30,267 nt of DNA, from the UHGV virus genome UHGV-0229465; one strand, written 5' to 3'. Of this stretch, positions 17,393 through 29,547 are shown piece by piece. Source of the DNA: a virus. Under the pieces are notes generated by a model. It had not been told where the DNA came from and ran no database searches. It saw nothing but the letters and a program-made list of their open reading frames with translations. The first letter of the stretch is position 1. Every line of letters begins with the position of its first letter. A program made the translations under genes and the position numbers.

Positions 17393-17491
17393 TGTACAAA
17401 ATGATTAATGTGTTTTTGTCTGGCATAATTTGGGTTTTCAACTTTAAGTAGTTAATATAATCACTCCTTACAAATGATTGAAGGGATGATT

Positions 17492-17986
17492 ATGCGTATC
17501 TTTGTGTTTTTTATATCTGCACTTTTATCTTTTAACTTGGCAGCGGAAGAGTGTAAGTTCAGCTTTAATGAGTCAGAATTAATCTCTTCTATAGGTATTG
17601 CACCAGTTAAGCAAGAGATAGTAAAGGATGAAGGAATAACTAAGCGTCAATATGAATTCAGGAGAGAATTGTCTTTTGAAGAAATGCTTGGCGATGATGC
17701 TGATGAAAAATATGAGCCGCAGTTTTATATATCTGTTTATAATCCATCATGTCCACAAAAGGTTATTATTTGGTTTTTCAAAGACAATAAAAACACACAA
17801 GCTTTAAGTAATGAGGTCCTTGCTGGTAGAGCATTCAAGTATTTAACTGGTGTTAATGAAAGTATTTTTGAAAATAAAATGAAAAAGTTTTCAAAGGTAC
17901 AGTCATTTGAATCCTTTGATGAAAGGACGGACTCTAAATTTATAAAGAGTGGTAATGTTTATTCCATTGATGTTCAACTCAGATAG
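17492..17986 (+). CDS. Secreted hypothetical protein (signal peptide), AT-rich moron inside the tail cluster
   Basis: AAGGGA RBS 6 nt upstream of ATG at 17492 (track start 17474); signal peptide MRIFVFFISALLSFNLA; very low GC; TATAAT -10 element upstream; T-rich hairpin region downstream. Confidence 0.55.
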   Translation: MRIFVFFISALLSFNLAAEECKFSFNESELISSIGIAPVKQEIVKDEGITKRQYEFRRELSFEEMLGDDADEKYEPQFYISVYNPSCPQKVIIWFFKDNKNTQALSNEVLAGRAFKYLTGVNESIFENKMKKFSKVQSFESFDERTDSKFIKSGNVYSIDVQLR

Positions 17987-23077: not shown

Positions 23078-23725
23078 ATGCATCGTATAGACACGAAAAC
23101 CGCGCAGAAGGATAAGTTCGGCGCGGGTAAGAACGGTTTTACCCGTGGTAACCCCCAGACCGGCACGCCAGCCACCGATCTGGATGATGACTACTTTGAC
23201 ATGTTGCAGGAGGAGCTTTGCAGCGTGGTGGAGGCATCCGGTGCCAGCCTGGAGAAGGGGCGGCACGACCAGTTGCTTACCGCGCTTCGTGCGCTGCTGT
23301 TAAGTCGCAAGAATCCGTTTGGCGATATCAAATCGGATGGCACGGTGAAAACAGCTCTCGAAAACCTTGGTTTGGGAGAAGCGGCAAAGAGGAATGTGGG
23401 GACAGGAGAAAATCAGGTACCGGATATGAACAGCTTTGGTAACTCATTGACCGCCAATGGATACCAGAAATTACCTGGGGGGATGATTATTCAATGGGGG
23501 AGTTTTTCTGTCTCACCAACCGGAGGAAGTGTTGGAACAGTTGATATAACATTACCTGTAGCTTTCCCTGCTGCTTGTCGTTCGGTAAACGCTCTTATTT
23601 CAACTAATGATCCTTCTGCCCGTTCTGTGGGCTTTGATATTGGAAGTACCAACAGAACTAAAATCAGATTTACTTACACTTCTGCTACAACAAATTCAAT
23701 TTACTGGATTGCTGTGGGGTATTAA
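23078..23725 (+). CDS. Tail fibre protein: constant N-terminus fused to the currently expressed variable C-terminus (Sv)
   Basis: GGAG RBS; crossover site lies inside the gene at codons ..LENLGLGE..; downstream part is AT-richer than the constant part. Confidence 0.8.
23355..23380. repeat. Invertase crossover site (gix/pix/hix-like), left
   Basis: ctctcgaaaaccttggtttgggagaa is an imperfect 26-bp palindrome resembling the recalled hix/gix consensus; inverted copy at 25213-25238 shares the 14-bp ttggtttgggagaa. Confidence 0.7.
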
Positions 23726-23727
23726 CT

Positions 23728-24159
23728 ATGGAAAAGACATATTATTTTAATCCCTCTGATTCGGGATTTTATATTTCACCAGATAGCCAAACCATTCCTG
23801 AGAACGCTACGAAAATAAACTTTACTATTTATTCTGAGTTCGCAGGAGTTGCATGGCCTGATGGTAAAATACTTGGTTCAGATAAAAATGGTTTTCCAGC
23901 ATGGCAGGATGCGCCACCACTTACCAGCGAAGAATTAATCTCAATCGCTGAATCAAATAAACAGCGATTAGTTAATCAGGCCAACGAATACATGAACAGT
24001 AAACAATGGCCTGGTAAAGCGGCGATTGGTCGTCTGAAAGGTGAGGAACTGGCGCAATATAATTTGTGGCTGGATTATCTGGACGCACTGGAACTGGTCG
24101 ATACTTCCAGTGCGCCAGATATTGAATGGCCTACTCCTCCGGCAGTTCAGGCCAGATGA
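23728..24159 (+). CDS. Tail fibre assembly protein (paired with the expressed fibre tip)
   Basis: 143 aa immediately after the fibre gene; C-terminus ..LWLDYLDALELVDTSSAPDIEWP typical of tail-fibre assembly proteins. Confidence 0.75.
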   Translation: MEKTYYFNPSDSGFYISPDSQTIPENATKINFTIYSEFAGVAWPDGKILGSDKNGFPAWQDAPPLTSEELISIAESNKQRLVNQANEYMNSKQWPGKAAIGRLKGEELAQYNLWLDYLDALELVDTSSAPDIEWPTPPAVQAR

Positions 24160-24733
24160 CATCCGGCGCGGTACTGGTATCTGTTGCCGTCACCGCGTCA
24201 ATGTAATCCAGCACAGTGTTAAGTCGGGTGGTCTCTGCCTGCATCAGCTTCCGCCCGGCCTGCAATTTCAGTTGAATCAGACTAATGGAAGCCATTGCAG
24301 TATCAATCAGTGACTGACGTTGTGCTTCTGCCGCGTCTACTGCGGCGCTATGCTGTGTCTCAGTATCCGTCACCCATTTCTCACCATCCCATTTATCGTA
24401 TGGCGTTAACGGGGCGATAGTGGTTGTTTTTTCGGGGTAATCACCCGGAGTTGTGATTTCTTTGGCGTCTCCCGTTTCGGTGTTATAGACGATTTCACCG
24501 CGATGGTCTGGTACATATTCCCATGAGTTAAAATCTGCAGAGCGGCAGATTGCATAACCAGCTTTGTAGGTGCCTGGAGCATCTAAACAGGAATATGCCG
24601 GAATGCCGACACCAACAGCAAGATATTCAGTTGAAGCTGAAATATACTCCCGACTCATGACGTCAAAGTTATAAACAGTGATTTCTCCTGCCATAGTGGC
24701 AATTAATTCACTGTTTAATTCTGCGTTATTCAT
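24131..24733 (-). CDS. Tail fibre assembly protein, alternative copy (inverted orientation)
   Basis: 200 aa on - strand converging on the + strand copy; C-terminus ..LDYIDAVTATDTSTAPDVIWPELP parallels it. Confidence 0.75.
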   Translation of the reverse strand: MNNAELNSELIATMAGEITVYNFDVMSREYISASTEYLAVGVGIPAYSCLDAPGTYKAGYAICRSADFNSWEYVPDHRGEIVYNTETGDAKEITTPGDYPEKTTTIAPLTPYDKWDGEKWVTDTETQHSAAVDAAEAQRQSLIDTAMASISLIQLKLQAGRKLMQAETTRLNTVLDYIDAVTATDTSTAPDVIWPELPEE

Positions 24734-25266
24734 TATGCAGCCCTCACAATATAGTTAAAAGCGACATTTCGTGGGCGTGTTTCATTCGCACCTGCAGGTT
24801 TAGTCGTTGCCGCAACAACACCACCCTCTGTAATAGCCGGGTTGGGAATTGGGTAATTATCGAAGTCAATGGCTGGAGACAGGGGCGTGATTTGTTTTAA
24901 AATCGTGGTGCCTGTAAAACTTCCCAGAGTCTGGTCGTTAGTTCGTGAAGTCCAGATTCCCCAATAGTGGTTATGACTGACAATCGCACCGTCCTGAAGC
25001 GTTAATAATCCCCTTCCGTTATCCACTCCACGTCCGTCATCCCAGCCACGAATAAACTCACCGCGTAAATCAGGTAATTTATTTGTCGGATAAGCCTTTG
25101 CCAGTTCCGGGTATTCTTCAGCAGAAAAAGCTGCTCCGTTGCATTTCAGCCAGCCTGTTGGCGGAGTGGCTGAAGGCCACGGAACAGGCACACCAACGGG
25201 TAATGCTGAGCCTTCTCCCAAACCAACGTTTATGAAAATGTAGAAATAACGAGCAAATGGCATCAT
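24733..25266 (-). CDS. Alternative tail-fibre variable C-terminal cassette (Sv'), silent in current orientation
   Basis: - strand ORF with receptor-binding-tip motifs (..LPDLRGEFIRGWDDGRGVDNGRG..); its 5' end contains the right crossover site encoding ..INVGLGEG.., in frame with the constant fibre part after inversion. Confidence 0.7.
   Translation of the reverse strand: MMPFARYFYIFINVGLGEGSALPVGVPVPWPSATPPTGWLKCNGAAFSAEEYPELAKAYPTNKLPDLRGEFIRGWDDGRGVDNGRGLLTLQDGAIVSHNHYWGIWTSRTNDQTLGSFTGTTILKQITPLSPAIDFDNYPIPNPAITEGGVVAATTKPAGANETRPRNVAFNYIVRAA
25213..25238. repeat. Invertase crossover site, right
   Basis: ttctcccaaaccaacgtttatgaaaa; reverse complement matches the left site over its right half; 55 bp upstream of the invertase start. 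Confidence 0.7.
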
Positions 25267-25292: not shown

Positions 25293-25631
25293 ATGCTTAT
25301 TGGCTATGTACGTGTGTCAACAAATGACCAGAACACAGATCTACAACGTAATGCGCTGAACTGTGCAGGATGCGAGCTGATTTTTGAAGACAAGATAAGC
25401 GGTACAAAGTCCGAAAGGCCTGGACTGAAAAAACTGCTCAGGACATTATCGGCAGGTGATACGCTGGTGGTCTGGAAACTGGACCGACTGGGGCGCAGTA
25501 TGCGGCATCTTGTCGTGCTGGTGGACGAAGATTTAGAGCATGAGTTAATTAATGGCGGTTTGTCCCACTATTGTGGTTGGTATCCCCATAGAACAGGGCA
25601 AGATATAGTTGTTCATCATGTTCACTCATAA
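25293..25631 (+). pseudogene. Serine DNA invertase (Pin/Gin/Hin/Cin family), truncated: catalytic N-terminus only
   Basis: GGGAG RBS; MLIGYVRVSTNDQNTDLQRNAL...LVVWKLDRLGRSM matches recalled Gin/Pin N-terminus with catalytic Ser; similarity is lost after ~residue 85 and the ORF stops at 112 aa (family ~185-190 aa), where AT-rich DNA begins. Confidence 0.7.
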
Positions 25632-26031
25632 GCAGAACTTCGGTGCTTGGCGTTATATTGAACCTTCTGAGGGATTCTGAGGATGAGTGGAATGTCGCGT
25701 TCTGATTCATCAGTAAGTAGGGAAAGATAGACTTTATGCGTCATTGACGGTGAAAGCGGCTATACATAGAAACTACCGACCAGCATCAGCCTGAAAATAT
25801 AGGCAGATAGAAAAAGTGGTCCGCACTTGCAACTAATGTTAAACCGTTTGTAGATATTGTGCTTCGGGTACAATTCTGTCCTATCGTTGCACTTAGCTAA
25901 CTACTCTATATTTAATGCATTGTAATAAAGATATAAAAGTTGTAGTGTTGAGGGTCCAATTGCACATAAGAGTGCAAATTTGAGTTTGGCCGTAGGCTAA
26001 TGATGAGAGTATAAGTTGGATTGGGTGCACT

Positions 26032-27129
26032 ATGAAGAAAAAAATAGCAGATCTACTAGCCGTTAAAACAAATATATTCGAAGTGTTCATTGTTGCGGTA
26101 TTAATTGCCTTGGGCGTAAATATACTGTCATCAGGCGTTGTTGGTTATTTTAACTTGTCATTTTTGAAAATGATTGTTGTTGGTGCGCTACTAATAATTT
26201 TAGGTGCCACAATCTTTCTGCGTAACGCCTATCCTATGAATAATGGGAAATATGATTTTGAGGGGGTTGTGTGTTTAGACAATGAAAAAAAAGAGTTGAT
26301 ATCAATTGAAGGCTACGATTTTTCCGAAGAGGTTAGCCGTTACCTAAAAGGATTATGCGCGGAAAATAAGGCTATTCATAAATCATGGACTGAGGGGCCA
26401 ATTGGTTATGCTTTTGATTTTAAAGGGAAGGGGATAAATAGCAAAAAAATGAAAGCAAATGCACTATTTATCGAGGCGATTGAGTATTATGTTTTAAGAA
26501 AACTTGCTCTTCATTTAAGTAGCTATTTTAATGATGATGAATCTTTTTCCGATGATTATTTGGTTAAACTAGATAGGAAAAGTATTCCTGATGTTCTTAT
26601 GGGGAATAGATTTATTGATACTTTTTCTAGAGCTATGGATGAACGTGAGCAATTTATGGATTATAGTTCTTTACCATCTATAGGTAAAGTTGTATATGCA
26701 TATGGCAATGGAGGCGCAATTTTTGACCATTTTGAAATAGTTCTTCCCAAAAGTAGTTCGCTCACAAGAGAGAGCGACTCTAGTATAAGTATTGTTACTA
26801 AAAGATTTAAGATTAATTATCGCCCTGTGTTCGAGGGATTCGGGGCTAATCTACCAATGAAATTTGGAAATCTTTATTTGGGTAGAGAGTTTAATTCATT
26901 TTCAACTTATTCAGTAGGTTTGGTAGTTACAGTGGATTTTAATGCCAAGTCTTTATTAACAACTAAGGGATGGGAATATTATTGGTGGCTTGATTCGTTT
27001 TTGGGAGAATTGGAACAATCATTTTCTAAAAAAATGTTTTTATCTAAAATATCTTGGGAGCAAAATGCAGCAATGTTTCTTATGCTTGAAAATAAGAGTA
27101 AAATGCAGCACAAGAGAGAGAATTTTTAG
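26032..27129 (+). CDS. Membrane-anchored hypothetical protein (two N-terminal TM helices, ~300-aa cytoplasmic domain)
   Basis: 365-aa ORF in very AT-rich DNA; promoter-like TTGGCC-18 bp-TATAAG upstream; Lys-rich N-terminus then two hydrophobic helices; no recognisable catalytic motif. Confidence 0.6.
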   Translation: MKKKIADLLAVKTNIFEVFIVAVLIALGVNILSSGVVGYFNLSFLKMIVVGALLIILGATIFLRNAYPMNNGKYDFEGVVCLDNEKKELISIEGYDFSEEVSRYLKGLCAENKAIHKSWTEGPIGYAFDFKGKGINSKKMKANALFIEAIEYYVLRKLALHLSSYFNDDESFSDDYLVKLDRKSIPDVLMGNRFIDTFSRAMDEREQFMDYSSLPSIGKVVYAYGNGGAIFDHFEIVLPKSSSLTRESDSSISIVTKRFKINYRPVFEGFGANLPMKFGNLYLGREFNSFSTYSVGLVVTVDFNAKSLLTTKGWEYYWWLDSFLGELEQSFSKKMFLSKISWEQNAAMFLMLENKSKMQHKRENF

Positions 27130-28074
27130 ACAAATAAAAGCAGTCTAAATATCTACATACAGGAAAATGTTCGCATCTGTCTAATGGTGAACAATAGTGG
27201 CTGTAAAAGCTGTAATTTGGGTTCGCTATGTGCTGCATGCATCGGTTGGGCTCACTGCTTATAACAGACATTAATTTTATGACAGAAAGACATTCATGCT
27301 AGTTGGAATATGCATAAAACTCCCTCTACACTGTGTTTGTATACAGTATTATTTTACTGTGCAAATAAGCAGCATTATTGTTTTCTCTGTTCAAGTAAAA
27401 AGAAATGGATACACTCACAAAGATTTTGATGGTGGCACGATAAGTGTCTTCGTTTTTATGAGAGCAGTTGTTGTGGCTTCATCACTAGTACTTAGCATCA
27501 AGACTGATTTCTTGCTGTTGGTTCAAGTACTTTATCCCATAAAAGCCCACATCTGTGGGCTTTCAAGTCACTAGGGCACCGCGGCTCCTTTGCGTATCTT
27601 TTTTTGTATCCTCACCGTCTGGTCGGTGTCCTGCTTTGGCTGCTAACTTGCTGTTTTTGTTGGAATTATCCTTACGCCACCCAATCATGATTGGTGGAGC
27701 TGGCGGGAGTTGAAACCGCAGGCACGTCGTATGCAAGAACGTGCTGCGGTTGGCTGGTGAACTTCCAATAGTGCGAGTATTGAATGATTTCCAGCTGTTA
27801 TAGATTTTACGTATTTTTTGTATGAGAGGATTTGCATCTCCTCCCACCGATCCTCCATGACTTTACTCCACTGTCTATAGGGCTGCTGTGTGCTAGAAAC
27901 GGACATTTTGGTCAACTGAGGGCATGGAAACTTGTTCAATAAATAACGTATAATCAATTGAAAATAAAATGAAATAATTGTAATATCAAAATTCAAAGCC
28001 CGTAGTGAGTATGATTATCTATTCTTAATTTCAACCTCTTAATTCTAAATAAGTTAGACAAATCGGAATGGCAG

Positions 28075-28716
28075 ATGAAAATTAAGTTAACACCAATCTG
28101 GTTATGGATAAAACAATATCAACATCCCCTTAGAGTATTGGGGGGGATTTTTTTCGGGGCCGCTTTGATAGCAGCTTTTTTTTGGATATCAGGATTTGAT
28201 ATAGAACCTATCGCATTCGCTCTGGGAATGCTTAGTTCATTGTTCTTAGCCAGCCCATCGGTAGCAGAATATTTTTTACCAGAACGTAAACCTGTCAGAG
28301 ATATGACATATGAGGAAATCTTAAATTTCATACCCAAAACTGAACCATCTCAAGATTGGCATGGGATTTCAAGGGAATGGGCTAGCGAACGATTCCTTAA
28401 AGAAGACCCACGTCTTCGTTTTCGAGCCAAGTTCATTGATGAAGGAATTCAATGTGAAAATTTTATAGAAGATTGGGCTAACAATCATCCAGATCCCAGA
28501 GCAACTGGATATTGGTATGAGCTTTATTACGACGGAGCATTCCTAGACAGGTTTTTATTGGTATCTGTGGATGGCGGTAGAGCGGATATTCCTCCACCAA
28601 AATTACAAACTAAAGAAATTAGCTTACTCAATTATCATGTTGCGAAAATACATGACACCTCTGGCACGTTAGATGAGTATATTAAACGATCTGGTTTAAC
28701 TATTGCAAAAACATAA
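28075..28716 (+). CDS. Membrane-anchored hypothetical protein (two TM helices, ~150-aa C-terminal domain)
   Basis: 213-aa ORF, AT-rich; helices at ~20-40 and ~45-63; convergent with the next gene. Confidence 0.55.
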   Translation: MKIKLTPIWLWIKQYQHPLRVLGGIFFGAALIAAFFWISGFDIEPIAFALGMLSSLFLASPSVAEYFLPERKPVRDMTYEEILNFIPKTEPSQDWHGISREWASERFLKEDPRLRFRAKFIDEGIQCENFIEDWANNHPDPRATGYWYELYYDGAFLDRFLLVSVDGGRADIPPPKLQTKEISLLNYHVAKIHDTSGTLDEYIKRSGLTIAKT

Positions 28717-28788: not shown

Positions 28789-29547
28789 TTAACATTCATG
28801 ATGCTTAATTTCCAGATCGGAAATTGCAATCATTCTTATTTCTTTCAATGCACTATCAATTGCTAATCTTATTCTTTGCCCATAATCATCTGGTTCTTCA
28901 TAATCCAGTGGAGACGGTTCTAAGCCAATATTTTCGACTAACTCCTCTAATTTTATAGTTACATCAGTATTCAAAAGAATTGCTTTTGTTATTAATATTT
29001 CAGTTAACGATATCATTGCAATGCTTAATTTTTGTTGTAATTCTTTGTTTTTAGTTTGGACGTCTTTATCATTCATTGAGTTCTCAATATCTGCTTGAGC
29101 CTGCTGAATTTCTTGGTAAAATTGTTTTTCTTGCTCTTCATTAAAATATGGCTGGTAACTGCTTGCAATCCATCCTGGAATCATATGAAGTTCAATTATA
29201 TGAAATTCATTGTCTGCCCATTTTTTAATTGCTAGCAATTGTGCATAGATGAATTCATACATATCATATTTTTTTTGCCAAATTTGTTGAGAGATCCATA
29301 TCTCAGATGTTATTTTTTTCTCTATATCTTTAATAGTAACTGTGTTTATAGATAATTGTTCCCGTAGGGTTTCGAAGTTAGAATTGGTTGCAGAAATTTT
29401 AGCCCATTCTGTAATTATTGAAACTAGGAAACTCATTGCTAGGGCTGCGATAACTACGGCGAGACTTAACCAGATAATTTCTGCTGTCGAGAAATTTGAT
29501 GACTGTAATGCCTTAATAAGATCAAGCAATTGCTTTTCTGTAAGCAC
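28789..29547 (-). CDS. Membrane-anchored hypothetical protein (one TM helix, helical/coiled-coil C-terminal domain)
   Basis: 252-aa ORF on - strand; GTG start with GGGGAG RBS; one hydrophobic helix near residues 22-46 then Glu/Gln/Lys-rich helical region. Confidence 0.55.
   Translation of the reverse strand: MLTEKQLLDLIKALQSSNFSTAEIIWLSLAVVIAALAMSFLVSIITEWAKISATNSNFETLREQLSINTVTIKDIEKKITSEIWISQQIWQKKYDMYEFIYAQLLAIKKWADNEFHIIELHMIPGWIASSYQPYFNEEQEKQFYQEIQQAQADIENSMNDKDVQTKNKELQQKLSIAMISLTEILITKAILLNTDVTIKLEELVENIGLEPSPLDYEEPDDYGQRIRLAIDSALKEIRMIAISDLEIKHHEC

Follow-up and report, generated by a model that had tools for sequence, protein, structure and literature searches.

A candidate single-gene phage-defence protein with a predicted membrane hairpin, carried as cargo at the end of an Escherichia coli prophage

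Results

A foreign gene at the right end of the prophage

The DNA analysed here, the virus genome UHGV-0229465 (30,267 nucleotides; this whole stretch is referred to as the window), is part of an Escherichia coli chromosome with a prophage. At the right end of the prophage lies a gene for a protein of 365 amino acids (aa), which, judged by its position, is a good candidate for a new single-gene phage-defence protein. The open reading frame (ORF) spans 26032..27129 on the + strand, runs from an ATG to a stop codon as a complete coding sequence in the ORF list, and is the sole substantial ORF of a low-GC (guanine plus cytosine) stretch. An initial annotation, made by a model from the letters of the window, had assigned 25986–27129 to this gene; its 3′ end was right, but its 5′ end lay 46 bp upstream of the ATG at 26032. 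This start codon is supported by alignment, in which the MKKK N-termini of homologues coincide with the ORF start, and the Lys-rich N-terminus noted earlier is indeed present (MKKKIADLL).

In near-identical E. coli genomes the protein is entered in RefSeq as WP_001542677.1, a ‘hypothetical protein’, and it is encoded identically in prophages at two chromosomal sites, near paoD and near prfC. The gene was carried by 12 of 5426 complete E. coli genomes, and over these 12 genomes and three IMG/VR viral contigs the protein was full length and 98–100% conserved. Its GC content is 33.5%, versus 52.9% in the prophage; base composition and rarity in E. coli thus mark the gene as foreign cargo of the prophage. 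Comparison with the Serratia gene gave a ratio of nonsynonymous to synonymous substitution rates (dN/dS) of 0.175, and comparison with the Citrobacter gene one of 0.144; the gene is therefore under purifying selection (dN/dS 0.14–0.18). Since the same accession occurs at two chromosomal sites, at full length and with this dN/dS, the gene is not a pseudogene, and the degraded fragment that the initial annotation had allowed for was not what was found.

The tail module of the prophage is contractile and Mu-like, with genes for the sheath, the tube, the tape measure, a DNA-circularisation protein and the baseplate proteins gp46, gp47 and YmfQ; after it comes an e14-type invertible tail-fibre segment. 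Behind two convergent tail-fibre assembly genes, the gene of the serine invertase, pinE, persists only as its 5′ part of 237 bp (25293..25529, +), which forms the left boundary of the foreign DNA. Pfam recognised the N-terminal part of the Resolvase domain only (3.5e-26), RefSeq describes pinE in near-identical genomes as ‘incomplete, missing C-terminus’, and full-length pinE matches end at query position 237, placing the end of homology to intact pinE at ~25529. At ~25530 the GC content falls from ~53% to 34%. The truncation leaves the first 79 codons of pinE, and the same truncation point is common to the prophages at the two chromosomal sites. With pinE cut short, the invertible segment at ~23078–25266, which includes the convergent tail-fibre assembly genes, can probably no longer flip and stays in a single orientation.

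Between the truncated pinE and the gene, sequence inspection and a promoter and terminator scan defined a leader at 25530..26031 (+), with AT-rich non-coding DNA of ~400 bp and a terminator-like hairpin at 25960–25977, just upstream of the gene. The initial annotation had credited the gene with promoter-like signals of its own. A sigma-70 consensus scan detected nothing on the + strand from the truncated pinE to the ATG, and the number of sigma-70-like sites over the whole region stayed at the chance level (9 versus 9.3 ± 3.0 expected), which does not bear this out. Given the terminator-like hairpin and the AT-rich leader, independent transcription of the gene is plausible but unproven.

Two sequences mark the other side. 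A scar of an ssrA (transfer-messenger RNA, tmRNA) attachment site, which forms the right boundary, was located at 27541..27719 (− strand) by BLAST against E. coli genomes, by the annotation of strain W2-5 and by pairwise alignment. The scar comprises the last ~25–28 nt of ssrA (27692–27719) and then ~150 nt of ssrA downstream flank, 87% identical to E. coli, with the ssrA terminator hairpin at 27541–27565. The break in homology falls inside ssrA, as is characteristic of the attachment-site junctions that ssrA-integrating elements form. ARAGORN and Rfam made no tmRNA call at the scar, in keeping with a fragment, and no Rfam family was found in the window. This arrangement suggests that the cassette once lay at one end of an element integrated in ssrA, or that aberrant excision captured it. 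The scar is situated far from the real ssrA locus.

The second sequence, at 27711..27898 (+), matches related prophages, and in E2386 its equivalent directly follows the intact pinE stop codon and precedes avs2; it marks the return of the prophage backbone after the cassette. Because the boundaries match pinE on the left and post-pinE sequence on the right, the 2.2 kb from ~25530 to ~27710 are a cassette that has taken the place of the 3′ two-thirds of pinE; it is made up of the leader, the single 365-aa gene and part of the ssrA flank. Beyond the 365-aa gene, no substantial ORF begins before 28075, leaving a gap of 945 bp with only unsupported ORFs of ≤103 aa. The spacer of ~950 bp of ORF-poor DNA described in the initial annotation is therefore real in length and content of ORFs, but it is not featureless, as it holds the ssrA scar and the post-pinE sequence. 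The gap is recombination debris rather than a regulatory desert, and by itself it provides no evidence of autonomy.

Predicted topology and conserved residues

Two hydrophobic segments were identified near the N-terminus by hydropathy, with Kyte–Doolittle 19-residue means up to 2.5, and AlphaFold2 rendered both as helices. Transmembrane helix 1 (TM1, ~residues 15–37; 26074..26142, +) corresponds to a modelled helix at residues 15–33 and is further supported by conservation, and TM2 (~residues 44–66; 26161..26229, +) corresponds to a modelled helix at residues 44–70 and is further supported by positive-inside statistics of the family. In a 170-sequence family alignment both segments were present in 99% of members, and the mean number of Lys and Arg residues was 2.8 in the 15 residues before TM1, 0.3 in the ~8-residue loop and 3.3 in the 15 residues after TM2. 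This distribution fits a predicted hairpin with both termini in the cytoplasm (N-in/C-in), a short periplasmic loop of ~6–8 residues and a cytoplasmic alpha/beta domain of ~300 aa (~residues 70–365; 26239..27126, +), the last delimited from alignments and the AlphaFold2 model. Since the statistics of the 170 members agree, the hairpin topology is a character of the family and not a chance property of one copy. The membrane anchor with a cytoplasmic ~300-aa domain that the initial annotation had proposed was thus upheld by the topology check, which gave a hydrophobic hairpin oriented N-in/C-in by its Lys and Arg bias.

TM1 is the more conserved helix. E17, A22, G28 and N30 are conserved in it, with the motif A-L-G-V-N; N30 is invariant in 41 closer members, and E17, G28 and N30 are 70–85% conserved among the 170 sequences, in which the mean conservation of block 16–30 (0.54) equals that of the cytoplasmic core. 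This is an unusual degree of conservation for a plain anchor. For the cytoplasmic domain, conservation was taken from 99 diverse sequences, selected to share <40% identity pairwise, together with two closer relatives whose identity to the query is 58% and 51%. In this alignment E111, N192, R205 and P239 were invariant, and Y95, W119, E151, Y152, R182, R246, W319 and W342 were at least 90% conserved, whereas E148, H161, R193, N112 and D321 were 85–95% conserved in the 170-sequence alignment. The near-invariant polar set of the domain accordingly comprises E111, N112, E148, E151, H161, R182, N192, R193, R205, R246 and D321, and its invariant aromatic residues are many (Y95, W119, Y152, F166, F208, F234, W319 and W342).

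The AlphaFold2 model built from the alignment was confident (predicted local distance difference test, pLDDT, 82.4; predicted template modelling score, pTM, 0.78) and was the only one used, the single-sequence model being useless (pLDDT 37). After the hairpin, the model has a long strand, two helical segments, a beta-hairpin and a 27-residue helix bearing E148, E151 and H161; next come a multi-stranded antiparallel sheet (~222–303) and, at the C-terminus, a helical bundle. Foldseek searches of the model against the PDB and against the BFVD viral structures returned 0 matches at E ≤ 0.001, and profiles from two alignments found nothing significant among PDB sequences. The modelled protein thus has no significant structural match among solved and viral structures (PDB, BFVD). 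Helix-grip (START/SRPBCC) domains recurred in the fold searches below the threshold of significant structural similarity, and they serve as a lead only.

Sequence searches gave a similar picture. Pfam contained no significant match for the 365-aa protein or for sets of 41, 10, 10 and 99 family members, and NCBIfam none for the protein. A second homologue search with a diverse profile yielded no further distant annotated relatives, and the longer family members (up to 565 aa) carried no informative fused domain. WP_001542677.1 was not found in literature full texts or in the DefensePredictor supplements. In agreement with the initial annotation, no nuclease, kinase or NTPase motif was recognised by Pfam in the protein or its family members, and nothing assigned the protein to a characterised non-defence family, which the same annotation had named as a possible outcome.

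Several candidate relationships were set aside. DUF3137 (PF11335) is the UniRef label on the Citrobacter youngae and Yersinia nurmii members, and this label is the sole link to that Pfam family; it was not reproducible, as PF11335 in the current Pfam matched neither the 365-aa protein nor the two labelled members, even at E ≤ 1–10, and was not among the families listed for the 41 and 99 members. Papers naming DUF3137 were uninformative for the family. Saf_2TM (PF18303) matched 1 of 41 members at E = 0.001, was not among the families listed for the 99 diverse members and is probably noise of hydrophobic composition. A HEPN-like R-x4-H at R156/H161 was discarded as R156 is not conserved in the alignment, and a PD-(D/E)xK nuclease as there is no invariant Lys and the motif order is unmatched. 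Profile–profile comparison (hhalign) gave a probability of <1% for kinship with the two membrane proteins encoded downstream. Class II holins are small (~65–95 aa) two-helix proteins of the lysis cassette; this class was rejected for a protein of 365 aa with a 300-aa cytoplasmic domain, encoded after the tail-fibre genes and outside the lysis module.

A large and patchily distributed family

A word-indexed search had returned 47 relatives. HMMER, run exhaustively over 1.84 billion representatives of clusters at 50% identity, returned 773 matches with E ≤ 1e-3, of which 640 reached E ≤ 1e-10. With few exceptions the matches were 350–400 aa long and aligned from residue ~5 to ~350, indicating the same architecture. 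When one genome per GTDB species was scanned, 45 species had a family member, with one copy per genome. These species included Proteobacteria, Acidobacteriota, Planctomycetota, Bacteroidota, Bacillota, Verrucomicrobiota, Actinomycetota, Spirochaetota and Gemmatimonadota, as well as archaea (Methanobrevibacter, Promethearchaeum and others), and the family gene was split in 3 of the 45 loci. The distribution is patchy, consistent with horizontal transfer. The family is, as far as these searches indicate, large, unnamed and previously undescribed, being in no library searched and having no detectable relative of known function.

In Citrobacter and Serratia the family gene has 33–35% GC, well below the 53% of the prophage in the window. 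The Serratia marcescens gene is a lone insert between LacI-type and LysR-type regulators, with ~440 bp and ~1050 bp of non-coding DNA on either side. The low GC content and this lone insert suggest recent transfer, and possibly silencing of AT-rich DNA.

Other members are associated with mobile elements and defence genes. The Citrobacter member lies beside putAbiC in a prophage remnant, a Pseudomonas member on an integrative island, and a Pectobacterium member in a P4-like satellite with HipAB; inovirus genes adjoin one member, and in Yersinia the neighbours are a 186-like prophage integrase and a protein resembling PD-T7-4. In a scan of IMG/VR made with the closer family alignment, one viral contig carried a member next to a CI-type repressor and Cro (the immunity pair), and a second carried one between a P22-type antirepressor and a Peptidase_S24 protein. 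PADLOC was applied to the 231 ORFs within three genes of a family member in the 45 species, and it detected a complete Gabija (2e-203, 2e-175) as well as Shedu (1.5e-124), with further matches to type II methylases of restriction–modification, PDC-S04, SoFic, WYL regulators and more. Enrichment of defence genes near the family is suggestive and not a measured figure.

The neighbourhoods were also used to assess partners. All-against-all BLASTP of the 747 ORFs within 10 kb of the family gene in the 45 species revealed no recurrent neighbour: only the family itself was shared by most loci, and the next cluster had 7 members at scattered positions. Flanking gaps were typically ~100–500 bp, and many neighbours were on the opposite strand. 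Moreover, in E. coli prophages the 365-aa gene occurs with and without the two genes that follow it in the window, and those two also occur without it. Together, these observations argue that the 365-aa gene acts alone, as the initial annotation had surmised. In the same clustering, one locus had a second ORF of the family cluster directly upstream of the target, and in an environmental genome outside that set of loci (L012/L013, 6796–7878) a 360-aa protein without a Pfam match is encoded on the same strand, 123 bp upstream of the family member.

The gene occupies a defence hotspot

The 365-aa gene sits in a slot directly after pinE or the tail-fibre assembly gene, at the right end of the prophage, between the truncated pinE and the post-pinE backbone. 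Related E. coli prophages were sampled through their pinE sequence, and the content of this slot was compared. It held McrA in K-12 e14 and SZQ1, Avs2 in E2386, and a GIY-YIG protein identified as PD-T4-3 (PADLOC 2.4e-140, full length) in S51 and CDC#03-98. In strain 165 it held Septu (PtuA 9.6e-171, PtuB 2.2e-32) together with an FRG-domain protein, and in HCP5S3_I4 a helicase pair, AbiTii (3.3e-33), a SMEK-domain protein and an AAA ATPase with an S8 peptidase; two further strains had unannotated proteins of 517 aa and 281 aa. The slot after the pinE/tail-fibre genes in E. coli prophages with e14-like or Mu-like tails is thus a defence hotspot with interchangeable cargo. McrA of e14, Avs2, PD-T4-3, Septu PtuAB and AbiTii share with the 365-aa gene this position after the invertible segment and pinE, as alternative cassettes within a common backbone. 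In contrast, there is no sequence or fold similarity: those proteins are cytoplasmic nucleases or NTPases, whereas the 365-aa protein is predicted to be membrane-bound and has no recognisable catalytic motif.

Further accessory genes in the window

Two convergent low-GC genes follow the gap, encoding a 213-aa membrane protein with two hydrophobic segments (28075–28716, +) and a 252-aa membrane protein with one (28789–29547, −). Both proteins are predicted to be anchored N-terminally, and their genes travel together in other strains. Neither has a Pfam, NCBIfam or PHROG match, and the 213-aa protein gave a weak PADLOC match to PDC-S50 (6e-4). This pair may be a second cargo cassette of the same hotspot. 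A 170-aa ORF (17474–17986, +) stands between the tape-measure and DNA-circularisation genes, on an insert of ~620 bp with low GC (39%); in the closest relative prophage, SC407, the two genes are just 60 bp apart. PADLOC returned no match for this ORF and PHROGs returned phrog_8976, of unknown function (2e-104); it looks like an accessory gene inserted in the tail module.

Discussion

Because the prophage-end slot of related prophages holds validated defence systems, the 365-aa gene is a candidate for a defence gene. We give about even weight to the view that its product is an anti-phage protein that works alone, anchored in the inner membrane, and that the gene is accessory cargo of a temperate phage. 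The single-gene abortive-infection or exclusion activity that the initial annotation had envisaged gains support from the slot and the neighbours, although no search linked the protein to a known abortive-infection or exclusion family.

Within the anti-phage reading, the version in which the membrane is breached and the cell killed takes up the larger part of the weight and is itself tentative. The conserved polar residues E111, E151, R182, N192 and R205 (with E148, H161, R193, R246 and D321) might form a site where, at the membrane's inner face, a cue of phage origin or one induced by infection is bound or acted upon. The many Arg residues would suit a ligand that bears phosphate, for instance a lipid head group, a nucleotide or nucleic acid; through its Glu and His residues, the site could bind metal or be catalytic. 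This event would be relayed to the conserved hairpin (E17, G28 and N30 in TM1), which would oligomerise, so that membrane integrity or potential collapses and the infection is aborted. In a non-lethal variant, the protein would instead block phage DNA entry at the inner membrane.

The most far-reaching form of the proposal, which we regard as doubtful, is that the family represents a novel immune module of a single protein, ancient, mobile by horizontal transfer and spread from enterobacteria to methanogens and Asgard archaea. The cytoplasmic domain, whose fold is unseen among solved or viral structures, would itself detect infection and convert the hairpin of the same protein to a membrane-breaching oligomer, combining sensor and effector in one protein with no partner and no second messenger.

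Membrane disruption is the established outcome for the transmembrane effectors of CBASS and Pycsar, and the proposed mechanism is alike in this respect. CBASS effectors of the 2TM-SAVED type and Pycsar transmembrane effectors likewise join an N-terminal transmembrane hairpin to a cytoplasmic domain, which in those systems senses a ligand. In contrast to them, no cyclase or other conserved partner was found in the 45 species or in the E. coli, Serratia, Citrobacter and Pseudomonas contexts, and the cytoplasmic domain had no match to SAVED, CARF, a cNMP-binding sensor domain or any solved fold. The lactococcal-type putAbiC (PF16872) is a single-gene candidate abortive-infection protein and a neighbour of the Citrobacter member; kinship with it was rejected, as there was no Pfam match and hhalign gave a probability of 0.4% against that neighbour.

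Several observations weigh against an anti-phage function. No family of PADLOC-DB v2.0.0 matched the protein at E ≤ 1, no PHROG matched it or four homologues at E ≤ 0.01, and by tBLASTn the gene was absent from 50,697 phage and 72,556 plasmid records. Members in Serratia (between the LacI- and LysR-type regulators), in Stahlbacteria and in an environmental genome lie among ordinary chromosomal genes with no defence or mobile neighbour. The neighbour survey used a crude ORF caller and no matched background, and its PADLOC summary is not mappable to single loci. Killing through the membrane hairpin is a step that we purely infer, and the conserved Glu, Arg, Asn, His and Asp set could equally fit an enzyme active site unrelated to phage.

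Superinfection exclusion, in which an inner-membrane protein expressed by the prophage blocks injection or the periplasm-to-cytoplasm transfer of incoming phage DNA and the cell survives, is an unlikely explanation but the best placed of the alternatives. T4 Imm, P22 SieA and HK97 gp15 block DNA entry at the inner membrane without killing the cell. These proteins and lambda RexB resemble the 365-aa protein in being phage-borne, in predicted inner-membrane location and in a position like that of genes expressed in the lysogen; the family gene lies at the end of the late/tail region or beside a CI repressor, as is typical for such genes, and its predicted hairpin topology is that of an inner-membrane protein. 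However, there is no homology to these four proteins and no PHROG match, and the exclusion proteins known so far are small, specific to a phage and narrow in distribution, whereas this protein is much larger and the family extends over many phyla and archaea with a conserved 300-aa domain. Family members also occur in non-prophage loci, next to Gabija and Shedu, and with only ~8 residues facing the periplasm the protein would have little surface to meet an injection apparatus.

Similarly unlikely, in our view, is an enzyme or a lipid-binding protein that works close to the membrane, with phospholipids or precursors of the envelope as its targets, and serves as a lysogenic-conversion or stress-fitness factor rather than in immunity. 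The near-invariant acidic and basic set (E111, E151, R182, N192 and R205) would be held at the inner leaflet, invariant aromatics are many, and some members have ordinary chromosomal neighbourhoods, all of which would suit such a role. The patchy spread on mobile elements and the defence-filled slot nevertheless argue against housekeeping, and no link to a lipid or envelope operon was found.

The chance that the gene is a selfish toxin or addiction element, with a hairpin that is toxic unless checked by an unrecognised small antitoxin or RNA and with no primary anti-phage role, is very small. The family is associated with mobile elements, the ~400 bp of non-coding DNA upstream and ~400 bp downstream could hide a small regulator, and a helix-turn-helix/MqsA-like gene adjoins the Pectobacterium member; on the other side, the 45 species share no conserved adjacent ORF, Rfam found no family in the window, and the flanks differ wholly between genera. 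The position between a truncated pinE and an attachment-site scar, and the split genes at 3 of 45 loci, might suggest a degenerating relic or an ORF that exists by chance in recombination debris. That reading is effectively refuted by a full-length protein conserved at 98–100% over 12 E. coli genomes and three viral contigs, a dN/dS of ~0.15, hundreds of full-length homologues and a confident AlphaFold2 model.

As candidate anti-phage cargo, the 365-aa gene is of a familiar kind, a single-gene membrane-associated phage-resistance determinant carried by a prophage, but the family itself is absent from the libraries searched, and PADLOC, PHROGs, Pfam and NCBIfam miss it completely. By the same logic, the other unannotated genes of the slot, encoding the 517-aa and 281-aa proteins, and the pair of 213-aa and 252-aa membrane proteins downstream in the window are candidates as well. 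If the 365-aa protein is protective, a widespread family of at least 773 clusters at 50% identity, present in bacteria and archaea, would join the defence catalogue, and its cytoplasmic domain would offer a fold without structural precedent for the study of infection sensing at the membrane.

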